Shown: positions 28,601 to 40,600 of the stretch, in pieces
Numbering within the stretch: position 1 is the first letter of the stretch
Layout: every line of letters starts with the position of its first letter
Source: Phoronis australis
Taxonomy: Eukaryota > Animalia > Phoronida
Assembly (NCBI GenBank): GCA_002633005.1
Contig: NMRA01000012.1
Span: 759,115-823,114, forward strand
Direction: 5' to 3'
Length of the DNA: 64,000 bases
Made by a program: the position numbers and the translations under genes
Notes under the pieces: model-generated
Seen by the model: the letters and a program-made list of their open reading frames with translations, nothing else
The model's database searches: none
What the model was told of the DNA's origin: nothing

Positions 28601-31600
28601 TCTGAACGACAGTGAGCACTAGGCAGAAACCATTGACAAATAAACTCACAGAAAATTGTATCATGTCTCTCATTTCACAAGTGCCTATTTTTCAAAATTC
28701 ATTGAGACAATCATGCACCTTTGCACGAGGATACTATGTCATTGTACTAAATAATTTCATAAGATTTGCAAGTCAAATATCAGGCAAATTTCATGAGCCA
28801 CAATCGAGTACTTACAATAAATTGAACGTTTTGGATCCTTCATAGCTGCAGCCATCTTCATGAAGTGACTGCAGGTCCACCTAACCATCATTCTGAGAAT
28901 GACCACAACCAATGACGAAAACGTTCAATTTATTGTTATTACTCAAATTTGGCTCAGGAAATTCACCAGATACTATGTCATCTGTTATGTCCAAAGTGTC
29001 ACTTTTCAAACCCCAAAACTCAACACGGATTTTGAACAAATAAAATTAACGTAATCTGAAAATATCATGGTAGACTATCTACCAGGCTGCCATTATTGGT
29101 ACGCACCACTTTGCAACTGCCATTAGTTTGGCGATGGTGTCCTTAAGTACTGGAAATTGATTAAGTTGCTGTTGAAACGCAGTCACAGTCACACAGAAAC
29201 CTGGGGTCACCTCAAACCCGTACTGAAAAAGAAAATTGTGTTAGCCCAATGACTAAAACAAGAAAATTTCACTGTTTTGTTTAAATTTTTTGCTTCAAGC
29301 ACAGACCTGTCGATAAGGTCCTACATAATATTAAAGGTCATATATGGGAAAACAACTTCAATAATAAGACAGTTTTCATTAAGTGACACTGCAATTTGTC
29401 AAACAGGAAAATTTCTGATTTCTGAGTCTGACAACATTTTTACCAAATATATGCAAGCAATTTCAATAACCACATAAGATTCCCACATCTTTATCTTACT
29501 AACCCTGTTTTAGTCGTAAGCTATTACAAACAAAAACATTATTTTATATGAGAGACCCTCACTATGAAAGATACTAGATCTTAAGCCAGTTTCCCAACCA
29601 CGAACAGCATATCTCAAACCTTTCCATAACATGAAAAGAAAAGACGAATGTCTCTCCAAACAGATTATTCTAGACATCAGGAACATAAAAAGAGTGTCAA
29701 AGATAGTCTCTCAAAAAGCCATCAGTTCTGAATCTTCCCAACTAGGGATGCTTTCTAGTCCCTTTTAATGGCAGAAACAATTTACTATGGCAATAAGGGA
29801 AATTTTCAGACAATCAGGGTAAAACATATTTTAGCATTTCAATGTCAAAGCAGTAAGTTAGAAGAAAATGCCCTTTAATATCAGGAATAATACACAGAAT
29901 ATTTTCAAACAATACTGCAAAATAGTGCACGTGTCTATTTACCTGATCCTTCACCTGAGTTAGTAACGCCAGCTGGCATCCTTTACCCCCAACAAGCTGG
30001 GAGCTGGCACATGTTTGTTTGGAGAACCCAACAACCAATGAGGCATAATCGGAAGGAGATAAGTCTGGCTCCGTCAACATCAGTAAAGATTTTGTCTCTG
30101 GTACTGGATTAGTGTTGCTGACTCTATACAAAAATGCAAAAACTCAAAAACGTATAGTATTTCAAAACAATAACATTAACGATTTTCCCAAAACAGCCAA
30201 GGACTTGAATTGGCTCGTCCTAATATAGCACAGCACCACATTCTAAGGTGATTACCCACAATGCAACACATGTGTCAAGAACTTGTCCTGCTTCTTCATA
30301 ATGCAGATGCACTAGTCACTATCTTGATTATTATGTAATTCATCATGTGTAATACATGGAAACTACTGTATTTAGAGCAAATGAATGACAATGCTGACAC
30401 CAAGCAATTGGCAAAAAGGCAAATATCACCGTAGGATGTGTTTCTTTTGTCTGATATTTTGAAAGTATGTTAGTCGTACAATGTGTTTTTCTACCTGCAT
30501 TAAAACAGGCTGCAACCTCTTGTTACAATACGATACAAAAGTAGCACAAGAGTAAATCCATGTGGAAACTGTACACTGTTCTCGTCGGCTTTTAAATGCA
30601 CAATAAATAAATTTACAAATCCACCACACTTCAGTTTGATTTTCTATTCGCATCATGTTTACAATTATAATTTTGTCTACACTTAGTGCCGCATATCCAC
30701 CAGGAAGGGGCATTCCAAGCAAAAGTGAAACTCAGACTCAATGGCTGAACACAAACATGACAAAAACTCTCATGTTGAGACTGACCTGAATGTCTGCCTA
30801 TTTCAATCATTAATGAATGCGCAGAGCATCACTTGAGCTCTAATATCCATGAACTGAAGGCAACTTTTAAAACATGTGAAATTTTAAACCACAAACAGTA
30901 TCAAATTTACTGTATGTACTCAATCTTTCTTCCCACTTCTGTTGGATCGAAAAGTGGCAGATATCTAGACTCGATACCATCCCCCTGATTTTACCATACT
31001 TCACTACAGGTGAGCCCATTGTTGACAACTGATGACAGAGTTAACGTTGTAATTATTTTTCGTCCTACACATCATGCTAAATTCTACAAATTTTAATATC
31101 ATTCTGTGAATACTTCACTGACTGAATAACACCTAGTAAAGTTATACCGGAAAATACCGTATAGAAATACAGTACACACCAAAAGTGAGCAGACAAAATT
31201 CTATTTCTCTATCATGACAAGTAATGTCCATTATGATGAATCATTCTAGGTGTCGTGACGAGGGGTTCTCTTTCATTAGGTGTAACTACTTTTGGCATGT
31301 ACTGCAGGTTAATGAGCGACAAAATGACACAAAATGTAACGTGATGACTATTAAGTTACCTACCTATATGCGAACTCACAAATGCCATAACCTTTGACCC
31401 CATCAACATCATAATGGCATAGCTTTTCATAGACAGTGTTGCCCCAGTCTTCTTCATGGTAGTACTTAGCAGTTGTGTGGGCGTGAACCTTCATATGGTA
31501 CTTCCGACCATCTGTGATAGAGACCAATCAGTAATAAGAAGACACAACTACTCAGATGACAATATCATATTAAGTGAGATAGCACGCACCTTTACAAGGT

Positions 31601-37600: not shown

Positions 37601-40600
37601 TATTATTCCGAAATAGTTATGTGGAACACAAAACGAAATTTCGTTCTTCAGTCTTACTTTACCTTCATGAAACAGATCCCAGACAAGTCGAGACGTAAAC
37701 AGTGCAGCTGTGGTAAACATTTTTCGTGGAAAAAAGCAACATAAGAACCTTCCAACATGCAGGAATGAATAATGAGGTTTTACTCCATCCAGTTACCTCA
37801 ACAAACCGTTAAAAGTTATGCGCCATTTCTTCATCGGCTCCACAACCTCACAGTTGAGACCCCCTGCTTTGAATGTCTTTCCATCAGTATTGTACACCAA
37901 GGTGTCTGGTTGGAGGGGGTATTGATACTCCCCCAGACCCGGCACTTGCAAGAACAGCCATATCTCCGCTTGTCTTCCATGACGACGACCCAGTCGGATG
38001 AAGACGTTGGTGCCATCAGCACTGAAGCCATTGAAGTAGATACAGTCAAGGGCCTAGGAAAATTATAAGAGCAAGTCTTTGTTTATGGTAAACACTCCTC
38101 GATATAGCACACAAAATGACAGCCATGTTTAATTCAATTTTGTCAAATTTCTCATTGAAAATCTAGATTTCATCATTGACAAGATGTACACCAAACAGGG
38201 ATCGCAAAACAAAAGTTTGGTAAAAGTTTGAGCATTCTAACAATGTAACCAGTCCTAGAAAAATGTTAATTATTTTTGTGCGAAATTGAAGAAAGATTAG
38301 CATACTTGTTACAATACAAACACATTATCTATTACTGCCAACAAACTAAAACAAATATTTTAGCATTTATTTATGGTAACCGTTGTACATTTTATTGATA
38401 GTTTTCCAGGATTTAAGAAGTTTTAGAAACAACAAGTTAAGCCTATTTCAAAAATATTGCTTAAGCTGCACTTTGACTTAGCTGAAATATGAAAATCGAA
38501 TTAGGCCTTTTATTCTCATATCGGTCTCATGATATTAGGATTAGAATAAAAGACCTAACCTGATTTTCATTTCATGTCAGGCAAACAGGGCAAAATGCAG
38601 CTTTATGTTGAGACCAAAACATACGAAAATTTATTTGTTATGAAACTATGAAGTTAAAACTTCTAGGTCTCAAGTTTTGGCACTGAGCAAAATGGTCGTA
38701 AATTGGTGGCTTTGTAATGAAATACTCTGTAGCACTTGCAATTAATTTTTTCAAAACCCCACTACAAGGAGTCAGGTAATTGACAGACAACAGCAATCTA
38801 TGGAAGACATATTGTAATTTTGCCAATTTTGACAAAACTGTCATTTTTTGTTTTTGTTTTTACAAGAACTGAACCCAGCTCACCAGTTATATACATGTGG
38901 AGAATTTCTTGATTACACTGGTCACTGCTCTCATTCCCTAAGCCCCAGACAACTTTTATGATGCCTAAGCACACCCTTAGTATTGATGTAGATCTGAGCT
39001 AATGAAGTGGAAAGGTAATAGCTAGCACTACTTTCTTAACAATGGTGGTTGTTATTACACCCAAATTGTTTTTCTCTGGCATTTGCACAGAGTTAAAGCC
39101 TGCAATGTGGAGAGTAGTTTTAACTTGGTACATTTTAAATATTACAAAAAGACTAAAAAGCTAATTTGCGTTCATCTTGATAAAGGATCACTTCCCAATG
39201 GAACCTTGGTTTCAAATATGTTTCATACCTGTTTTCATTACTTTATTTTAATACTCCTGTCTACTTGTTTTTTTCCTAACCAGTTAGGGTTGTTATCTTT
39301 TTATTTTGTGTTTAAACACAATATCAGAACAACTTAGAAGTCAGTTAATTGTGAACCCATCCTTGAATTTTCCAGATTACAGCTACACCAAACATGTCAC
39401 AGCAAACAAAACTACACATGCCATTAGTTCAAGTTCAATGTTTATTAGAACTCAAATCATAAAATATATGCAAAAGTGCAAATATGGTGATCGCCAAATT
39501 GAAGATTTGGAAGCTCTGGACAATTTTGGTTGCAGTAACTACATATAACTATTCTAGCTTTTCCTCACTCATAAAAAAGGAAATCACAGCTCTTGCCCAC
39601 CGACCAACCTCATTCATTGCTTGCACTCTCTCGTTGACTACAAAGCTAGCCATCTTAGTTGTCTTCACAATTGGCACATCTTCGCGAATAGCAGAGGTTT
39701 CCGGTTAGTGTACTACTCCTGGAGTAAAGTAGTTCGGCATGCACTGGGCCATAAGCGATGCTTTAAAAGTTATTGACATCTAATTGAGTCACTGTGTTGT
39801 TTATAGATGTTTCAACTGTAGCTTAGTTGTATATTAAAAGAACAATCCTTGTGATATTGTTAACTCTAACCAGCGTACGTAAATCACTGAATATATATCA
39901 ATACGCACAGTCGTTTATCTTCAATCTTACCCAATGTTTGTAGTTTTTAGCTTGATAGTTCATCAATTTTTAAAATTCGAATTGTTTTTTCCAACTGAAT
40001 ACACCTGTGGTATTTGTTTTTAATGAAAACTGTTGGTTAATGCATTTTAAAAATTTGTGAGTATGTAGAGACAGAGATGTTAACTACAGTTAATGGTTGG
40101 GTAATTACACTTAATTGGGTCTTGCTCAGCACCGGACAATGCGGTCATCGCAACTGAGTCCGACAGTGGTGCCGCGCTCTTTTTGATCCTGGTAAAAGCC
40201 ACTCAGAAGGACGAGCGGTGAAAGGTCACGCATATTTTTAGAAATACGTGACTTTCGTGTAAACGTATTATTCACGGCATGTAGGACCTTATTAACAAGT
40301 CTTTGTATTATGCCAAATAATATCTGCAAACTATCGACTTCAACTCAGTTAGTTTCAAATTTGACAGATGTATAACATCTGACTGGTGCACCCTTTTAAA
40401 AACATAACATTGGTGTATCCACCACAAGTATTATTAAGATGTGAAGTGCACATGACCCTGGCATTCATTGAGAAGAAAAATCAAGTGTTATTAGTAGACA
40501 TGGAATGACAGCTTTTTAATATGGTGATATCAAGTGACATGGTAACATATAAGTATATTTTTAATTTTAAAAATTTACTTGGTGTCTTTTAACAGTTCAG

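Follow-up and report, generated by a model that had tools for sequence, protein, structure and literature searches.

A predicted AttH-type double β-barrel related to 25-phosphosteroid lyase is joined to a His-swivel dikinase in one transcript of Phoronis australis

ATP-dependent dehydration by a kinase followed by a lyase has been described for 25-hydroxysterols in Sterolibacterium denitrificans, where the kinase is a separate protein (PMC7411048, PMC8449060, PMC11061730). This dehydration of sterols was termed unprecedented in 2021 (PMC8449060). A gene of related design is reported here from Phoronis australis, within 64,000 nucleotides of AT-rich animal DNA (assembly GCA_002633005.1, contig NMRA01000012.1, positions 759,115 to 823,114; hereafter the window). 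Its product carries a double β-barrel, which profile matches and modelling relate to 25-phosphosteroid lyase, in front of a dikinase with the domain order of rifampicin phosphotransferase (RPH). We consider it somewhat better than an even prospect that the fusion acts as a membrane-anchored ATP-dependent dehydratase of a hydroxy-lipid, in which the kinase works first and phosphate elimination follows. This reading builds on the fusion itself, the dikinase residues, the fold, the homology to the lyase and the linkage to kinase genes, from which both activities would follow.

Barrel and dikinase in a single transcript

The gene spans 5344..46082 on the minus strand, reading from 46082 to 5344, and its 36 exons give a coding sequence of 3,990 nucleotides for 1,329 amino acids with zero internal stops. 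Exons were placed by tblastn with full-length relatives and by splice sites, yielding 34 GT-AG introns and one GC-AG intron, for which a GT-AG alternative is also in frame and makes the protein one residue shorter. Reads from three RNA runs bearing the same species label, compared with the gene outside 24,400-27,000, contain joints for at least 22 of the 35 introns, including five of the six inside the barrel domain; the remaining 13 are based on splice sites and homology, and introns 1, 2 and 6 are absent from the RNA joints listed. Intron 9, between barrel and dikinase, is crossed by 10 reads (five in run X1, five in X2, none in X3), whose joint lies 6 nucleotides off the GT-AG sites and has the equal length of 1,240. 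Barrel and dikinase are joined in one transcript. The protein is 44-45% identical to abalone proteins across residues 25-1131, and its domains follow the order N-terminal hydrophobic helix, double β-barrel, ATP-grasp domain, substrate-binding domain and phospho-His swivel domain.

A preliminary description, made from the letters alone, had placed a domain of about 310 residues in front of a dikinase at 31364..38053. The domain is indeed there, as residues 90-400 (311 residues) encoded by exons 3-9 and spliced in frame to the dikinase across the junction read in RNA; those coordinates cover the barrel, and the whole gene extends beyond them on both sides. All five motifs named in that description are present on the minus strand, spread across seven exons from 38053 to 31364. 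Exon 3 (37797..38053; all exons lie on the minus strand) encodes residues 90-175, with D92 and [15 protein letters not shown]; it has an RNA joint to exon 4, and D92 aligns with D32 of the lyase. RNA joints were found on both sides of exon 4 (36190..36255, residues 175-197), exon 5 (35763..35876, residues 197-235, with two helices and AREKW, also placed by tblastn) and exon 8 (32452..32579, residues 308-351), and one joins exon 7 (33121..33173, residues 291-308) to exon 8. The candidate active site lies in exon 6 (34607..34772, residues 235-290), which holds H240-Y-E-Q243, R267-D268-H-S270, R274, W276, R281 and [18 protein letters not shown], and which is assigned from conservation, the lyase alignment and a sub-cut-off match to DUF7065 (E 0.0011). 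Exon 9 (31364..31511, residues 351-400) contributes E379 and GYGICE396, where E379 and E396 align with lyase E333 and E350, and has a sub-cut-off match to DUF7064 (E 0.001).

Upstream, exon 1 (45983..46082) contains the start codon and a hydrophobic segment, residues 1-20, predicted to be a membrane anchor or signal (Kyte-Doolittle 19-residue mean 2.05), which corresponds to helix 2-21 in the model of the hemichordate relative P0034. Exon 2 (41480..41646), placed by tblastn with relatives P0002 and P0011, encodes a basic amphipathic helix and linker, residues 34-89, with helix 39-60 in the same model.

The dikinase half begins with exons 10-20 (21922..30123), which encode a linker and the ATP-grasp domain with K447 in GGKG and R549 in RSS; PPDK_N is matched by one exon and, at E 1e-76, by relative P0002. 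Exons 21-32 (8223..21601) encode the central substrate-binding domain, 28-33% identical to operon-type bacterial dikinases, and exons 33-36 (5344..7627) encode the swivel domain with H1282 in LSHGAVVAR and the stop codon, supported by RNA joints and a PEP-utilizers match on one exon (E 3e-6). On alignment with RPH, the catalytic residues K447, R549, R1119, E1120, K1123 and H1282 are intact and correspond to RPH K22, R117, R666, E667, K670 and H825, which have been implicated by mutagenesis or structure. The protein thus has the ATP-grasp, central and C-terminal His domains of the RPH/PigC type. Identity with RPH, PigC or RedH was rejected on curated cut-offs: P0002 reaches 386 bits against 999 for RPH (NF041857), and 323 and 304 bits against 1,300 and 1,350 for PigC and RedH (NF052631, NF052632); PEP (phosphoenolpyruvate) synthase was rejected in the same way. 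Residues ~760-1030 of P0002 have no alignment with RPH, and the database name 'rifampicin phosphotransferase-like' borne by relatives was given by similarity.

Fold of the barrel and its likeness to 25-phosphosteroid lyase

The domain stands well beyond chance, since exon 3 alone matches 190 proteins at E<=0.001 among 1.84 billion in a HMMER search, the best 150 of which were examined; word-indexed protein searches with single exons gave no match. Aligned end to end, the whole barrel is 46% identical to an oyster relative, 44% to a hemichordate one and 30% to a bacterial one. Relatives P0002 (29.0 bits) and P0034 (28.9 bits) pass the gathering cut-off of 24.7 bits for Pfam DUF7064 (PF23212), which window exon 9, scanned singly, approaches at 19.8 bits. 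For DUF7065 (PF23213), the relatives stay below the cut-off of 27 bits; window exon 6 alone scores 19.5 and an operon-type bacterial barrel 24.4. Among 27 family members at E<=1, DUF7064 is matched in 24 and DUF7065 weakly in 17. The nearest language-model neighbours are DUF7064/DUF7065 clusters (score 0.95), and tocopherol-cyclase clusters are also near (0.94); an atlas search with exon 3 returned weak, unnamed clusters. No literature on DUF7065/DUF7064 was found.

Structure comparisons used the model of P0034, which is 44% identical to the window domain over 312 residues and has a pLDDT (predicted local distance difference test) of 95.4. Foldseek ranks 25-phosphosteroid lyase first (E 2.4e-13, TM score 0.51), then AttH (E 3.1e-9), pericyclases and kievitone hydratase. 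In VIA, the model superposes on AttH NE1406 (2ICH) over most of the domain, with Z 25.7 and a root-mean-square deviation of 3.5 over 284 aligned residues, on pericyclases and kievitone hydratase with Z 22.4-23.6, and on the lyase with Z 22.0-22.3, a deviation of 3.7-3.9 and 273-275 aligned. Identity in VIA is highest with the lyase, at 18-19% versus 7-11% for the other AttH-fold proteins. The resemblance to AttH/CrtC-like double barrels that had been suggested in the preliminary description is therefore borne out on this modelled relative, with Z 22-26 across AttH, kievitone hydratase, pericyclases and the lyase.

The lyase is singled out by sequence. Three profiles searched against 177,635 PDB sequences match only 25-phosphosteroid lyase, apart from one unrelated row at E 1.2: profile A1 (21 mostly animal rows) at E 2.8e-4, A7 (27 animal and operon-type rows) at E 1.6e-8 and A5 (17 rows including distant bacteria) at E 4.1e-15. 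Single-sequence queries of the PDB, with exon 3 and with one actinobacterial barrel, gave no relevant entry. As judged from these profiles and the P0034 model, the 311-residue domain is an AttH-fold double β-barrel homologous to 25-phosphosteroid lyase. Eight polar positions are identical between window and lyase (D92/D32, Q243/Q149, R267/R175, D268/D176, S270/S178, R274/R182, E379/E333 and E396/E350), and their alignment points to a probable catalytic role. In the P0034 model, H240-Q243 and R267-S270 occupy consecutive strands, which suggests that they are close in space. In PDB entry 9G4C, titled as a complex with phosphate and desmost-1,4-diene-3-one, the residue equivalent to D268 (lyase D176) is Asn, probably a trapping, inactivating mutation of a catalytic residue. 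A literature search found no paper on the lyase structure. Elimination, one of several options in the preliminary description, is now favoured, because the sole solved protein matched by sequence is a phospho-lyase.

The same data bear on a different order of events, in which the barrel, as a CrtC- or kievitone-type hydratase, would first hydrate a C=C bond of an isoprenoid, after which the dikinase would trap the tertiary alcohol as a phospho-lipid end product. Kievitone hydratase and AttH have fold scores equal to or above that of the lyase, and the window has His at the positions of lyase Arg146 and Arg177. CrtC, compared here by published residues, has the catalytic residues H239, W241, Y266 and D268, and its requirement for His239 and Asp268 has a spacing like that of H240 and D268 (PMC4717167). 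AttH hydratases have also been reported to act on lipids beside partner enzymes (bioRxiv 2025.10.20.683597). Against this, the PDB profiles find the lyase and no hydratase, and the CrtC and tocopherol-cyclase Pfam families are absent from the matches of the 27 members at E<=1, a search in which HMMER filters weak matches. A hydratase, moreover, would need no kinase, yet barrels have decayed in three genomes in which the dikinase was not found. Taken together, we judge this order of events unlikely.

Bacterial gene pairs and animal relatives

A pattern scan of 185,579 prokaryotic genomes returned 12 barrel loci, in seven of which a dikinase of ~800 residues lies directly downstream on the same strand (four Spirochaetota, Bacteroidota, Bacillota and Acholeplasma). 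This order, barrel then dikinase, is that of the animal fusion. The barrel of the Bacteroidota operon has an in-frame stop, and a Novosphingobium genome with a barrel gave no dikinase match. The preliminary description had proposed looking for stand-alone bacterial homologues next to PEP-utiliser genes, and this check was strongly positive. Among 401 Spirochaetota genomes, the barrel occurs in 10 and the dikinase central domain in 10, with nine shared (hypergeometric P 1.5e-16, or 9e-12 without three already-known genomes, kinship being ignored), and a dikinase is directly downstream in 8 of 11 barrel loci. In 401 genomes of one Bacillota class, all eight full-length barrel loci have this arrangement, and of 399 genomes scored for the dikinase, those eight alone gave a match. 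Together, the two samples give a dikinase directly downstream in 16 of 19 full-length loci, four of the 16 overlapping with the pattern scan. The three decayed barrels, from genomes without a dikinase match, read RYHN for RDHS in one case and are shortened to ~220 residues in the other two.

More distant barrels have other partners. Thirteen plasmid loci, taken from 39 listed rows at about one per genus with neighbours unseen, were considered with locus L015. Of these 14, seven have an APH/EcKL kinase gene next to the barrel and two more have one within 3.5 kb, a count given without a background rate. Most of the loci sit in lipid-catabolic clusters. The barrel family is paired with kinases of two unrelated folds, and within it the animal and operon-type members make up a separate clade, linked to the dikinase and not to the APH kinase. 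It is likely that DUF7065/DUF7064 proteins are phospho-lyases pairing with two unrelated kinase folds, and likely that the animal gene derives from a bacterial operon whose two genes, arranged in this same order, became fused.

Two plasmid clusters are of separate note. A Diaphorobacter plasmid (L065:2476-7685) carries two tandem pairs of EcKL/APH kinase and barrel behind 2-oxoacid dehydrogenase genes. In a Sphingopyxis plasmid cluster (L002:1-13440), two barrels flank an APH kinase, together with a tyrosine-phosphatase-like gene, a P450, a rubredoxin, an alkane monooxygenase, and alcohol and aldehyde dehydrogenases.

A metagenome scan gave 26 loci, of which two repeat the operon at L007 and two (L033, L043) are eukaryote-like and have the barrel ahead of the dikinase; the others, being short or intron-containing, were not counted. 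A DUF7064 search of 301 Pseudomonadota genomes found five, with flanks too short for neighbour counts. An apparent bacterial fusion of 1,097 residues (L012) was rejected, because there a stand-alone barrel is preceded by a long open frame.

Esterase-type genes recur near the operons. In five Bacillota loci (L080, L081, L083, L086 and L087; three are Pfam-confirmed), the gene immediately upstream of the barrel encodes a GDSL lipase, and in two other lineages (L004 and L014) a 4HBT thioesterase is encoded no more than ~2 kb from the operon. These neighbours hint at a substrate freed from an ester. They are also the only recurring neighbours, and the operons showed no conserved third gene that would supply a nucleophile. 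This last observation speaks against the proposal that phosphate serves as a leaving group for substitution, with the barrel driving cyclisation, the formation of an ether or C-N bond, or an allylic rearrangement of the phospho-ester, as in PigC condensation or tocopherol cyclase. The proposal draws on the pericyclases of the fold family, on the tocopherol-cyclase clusters near in language-model features, on the differences from the lyase at H240, E242 and H269, and on PigC-type enzymes, which activate condensation via phosphorylation (PMC13534948). Since the only solved relative at the sequence level eliminates phosphate, substitution appears rather improbable.

Among animals, 30 hand-chosen relatives were looked up. 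Fused relatives of ~1,310-1,350 residues occur in abalone, oyster, sea urchin, sawshark, sea slug, arthropods and a tunicate, and stand-alone relatives of ~410-430 residues in hemichordate, Aplysia, elephant shark, shrimp, beetle, whitefly, thrips and birds. A quick tree of the barrels, without five partial or duplicate rows, places 45 rows including the animal proteins in one clade (support 98) beside 11 operon-type and Myxococcota barrels (96), and groups the window with mollusc sequences (96). Arthropods also have an intact stand-alone paralogue, which joins the hemichordate, Aplysia and elephant shark sequences in a distinct clade (97). This paralogue (P0066, P0096, P0111, P0113, P0085, P0034 and P0190) is ancient, has the intact motif and an N-terminal hydrophobic helix, ranges from insects to elephant shark, and is uncharacterised by its database names. 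The literature search found no study of the animal fusion gene, only one table row in a shrimp paper; supplements of horizontal gene transfer compendia may mention the family.

Conservation was assessed in 55 aligned rows (50 representative matches, the window and four plasmid proteins). Of the fused proteins, 12 of 29 retain D268, as do 15 of the 19 that appear to be stand-alone and all six from bacteria; two of the four losses among the apparently stand-alone rows are truncated fusions. Named fused proteins lacking D268 are nine from arthropods and one from a tunicate. The expectation that the motif residues would be conserved among orthologues thus holds throughout for the window protein, and fails in part for its fused relatives. 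By the same token, the description of a 'bifunctional enzyme' stands for the window protein and its mollusc, sea-urchin and shark relatives, and falls for the family as a whole. Barrel decay co-varies with dikinase motifs (E-M-x-P and R-E-A/S-E versus E-V-x-P and E-F-D), mostly within one arthropod clade, and was not counted as evidence.

In the 17 of 29 fused relatives that have lost D268, the dikinase motifs are mostly intact, and arthropods and the tunicate retain the domain without its motif. This tells against dehydration. It would be expected of a barrel module that has no catalytic role and serves to bind lipid or to dock at a membrane, the enzyme being a plain kinase that acts on lipophilic alcohols or phenols in the manner of RPH or of YvkC, an RPH-like Bacillus enzyme that phosphorylates flavonoids (PMC13099321). 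A passive carrier would not be expected to retain polar motif residues across phyla, however, and the window barrel retains every position conserved from bacteria to sharks. The intact stand-alone paralogue of arthropods likewise argues against such a module and suggests that the reaction has moved, not vanished. On balance, a purely non-catalytic barrel is improbable.

Tetrapods (P0045 and P0193-P0224, from birds, turtles and a frog) have a barrel-only or split gene (LOC776594 in chicken) in which the motif Asp is Ser. The bird protein is likely a truncated fusion, because its row nests with the sawshark fusion. The 36 matches included neither mammals nor bony fishes, which does not prove that the gene is missing there. 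A millipede protein of 2,590 residues (P0225), clustered with a 1,329-residue fusion, perhaps represents two tandem copies, and its species has at least three barrel-degenerate paralogues.

Proposed reaction and comparison with known systems

If the fusion is a dehydratase, as we favour, its cycle would start with the ATP-grasp domain, which by analogy with RPH would phosphorylate His1282. The histidine would swivel to the central domain and phosphorylate the hydroxyl of a hydrophobic substrate at R1119/E1120/K1123. The barrel would then bind the phospho-ester, whose phosphate may be contacted by R267, H269, R274 and R281, and would eliminate phosphate, with D268 as the putative acid/base, to leave a C=C bond, as homology to the lyase predicts. 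A lipid substrate is proposed because the membrane anchor, the sterol-lyase relative and the recurring esterase neighbours point there, and, judging from the lyase and the fold family, the likeliest class would be a sterol or isoprenoid chain bearing a tertiary or allylic alcohol.

Several further observations weigh against this dehydratase. In bacteria, four Myxococcota barrels lack an adjoining dikinase (two of the contigs end within ~1 kb, and all four genomes have a dikinase elsewhere), two intact barrels (L076, L077) have no kinase within 0.9-1.5 kb, genome G533 has a dikinase and no barrel match, and no kinase was seen near 5 of the 14 distant barrels. The lyase gene itself lies away from its kinase gene (PMC8449060). 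All 11 bird, turtle and frog-type proteins displayed read Ser (RSHS) at D268. On the structural side, the comparisons concern a relative and not the window protein itself, and the fold alone, as modelled, is AttH-like and does not single out the lyase. Three aligned positions differ between window and lyase (H240/R146, E242/A148 and H269/R177), so that the lyase pair Arg146 and Arg177 is absent, Arg at 269 occurring in a few bacterial and animal members. An essential His...Asp pair has likewise been reported for CrtC hydratases (PMC4717167), and the catalytic significance given to Asn in 9G4C is our interpretation of that entry.

A wider extension of the dehydratase proposal, which we regard as a long shot, is that animals inherited a bacterial dikinase-lyase operon as a membrane fusion plus an ancient stand-alone barrel, both remodelling dietary sterol side chains. 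The fusion would dehydrate a 24- or 25-hydroxysterol, and the stand-alone barrel would be the microsomal fucosterol-epoxide lyase of phytosterol dealkylation. Epoxide-lyase cleavage is microsomal and gives desmosterol (PMC3124498), and the literature found, in the excerpts available, names no gene for this step. A microsomal epoxide lyase fits an anchored barrel; the intact elephant shark copy has no obvious fit with a link to dealkylation. If the extension were true, the stand-alone barrel of plant-feeding insects, shrimp and molluscs would make the same delta-24 side chain as the bacterial lyase. The arthropod split between a dead fused barrel and an intact stand-alone one is, speculatively, a candidate for the epoxide-lyase step.

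Around the locus, a short-chain dehydrogenase gene (48927-49385 and 54089-54424, plus strand; best NCBIfam PRK08278, E 2e-46) lies head to head with the fusion gene, its start ~2.8 kb from the dikinase start codon. It presumably resembles HSDL2-type lipid short-chain dehydrogenases. Within intron 2, a retroelement remnant (40869-41508; integrase zinc-binding domain, E 0.019) lies beside a 40-nucleotide tandem duplication (41426-41465 versus 41469-41508) that takes in the end of exon 2 together with its splice donor. Intron 3 contains an 82-nucleotide inverted repeat (36513-36810), 95% complementary with 134 nucleotides of spacing, likely a small transposon. Many strand-switching RNA reads coincide with a short palindrome at ~32157-32170.

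Among known systems, RPH-Lm (PDB 5FBS, 5HV2; NF041857; PMC4844700), PigC/RedH/HapC and YvkC share with the window protein the order of the three domains as well as the catalytic K, R, R-E-x-x-K and His, whereas RPH structures, at 867-883 residues, lack a barrel. The AttH-like double barrels (NE1406, 2ICH; kievitone hydratase, 7A0T; the pericyclases Fsa2, Phm7 and CghA; and CrtC) resemble the window family in fold (Z 22-26 over 273-285 residues), lipophilic substrates and acid-catalysed chemistry, but are only 7-12% identical and are unmatched by the sequence profiles. The Rv3169 family (NF053593) is matched by P0034 at E 3e-10 and 39.5 bits and by the L004 barrel at 37.2 bits, both below the cut-off of 150. 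None of the AttH-like double barrels named above is known to be coupled to a kinase. The partner of Rv3169, Rv3168, is an APH-type kinase, whereas the clade of animal and operon-type barrels is partnered by a dikinase. Rv3168 and Rv3169 form an operon (PMC5340868).

The closest counterpart is the pair of 25-phosphosteroid lyase (PDB 9FZN, 9G2I, 9G4C) and 25-hydroxysteroid kinase of S. denitrificans (PMC7411048, PMC8449060, PMC11061730), which shares the fold, the eight identical polar residues including the Asp of RD[HR]S, and the pairing with a kinase. The two barrels are 16-19% identical, with His/Glu/His in the window where the lyase has Arg/Ala/Arg. The partner of the lyase is a phosphotransferase-family kinase, whereas that of the window barrel is a His-swivel dikinase, and the soluble bacterial proteins are separate, whereas the window encodes one animal polypeptide with a predicted membrane anchor. 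Relatives in molluscs, sea urchins, sharks, arthropods and a tunicate carry PEP synthase or rifampicin phosphotransferase labels by similarity only, and the family now has a testable reaction, for which small two-gene bacterial operons ease the hunt for a substrate. If the proposed dehydration is correct, the single animal chain with its His-swivel dikinase would add a new activity to those known to modify lipids. Dehydration by kinase plus lyase is already known; what would be new here is the His-swivel dikinase as partner and the single animal chain.

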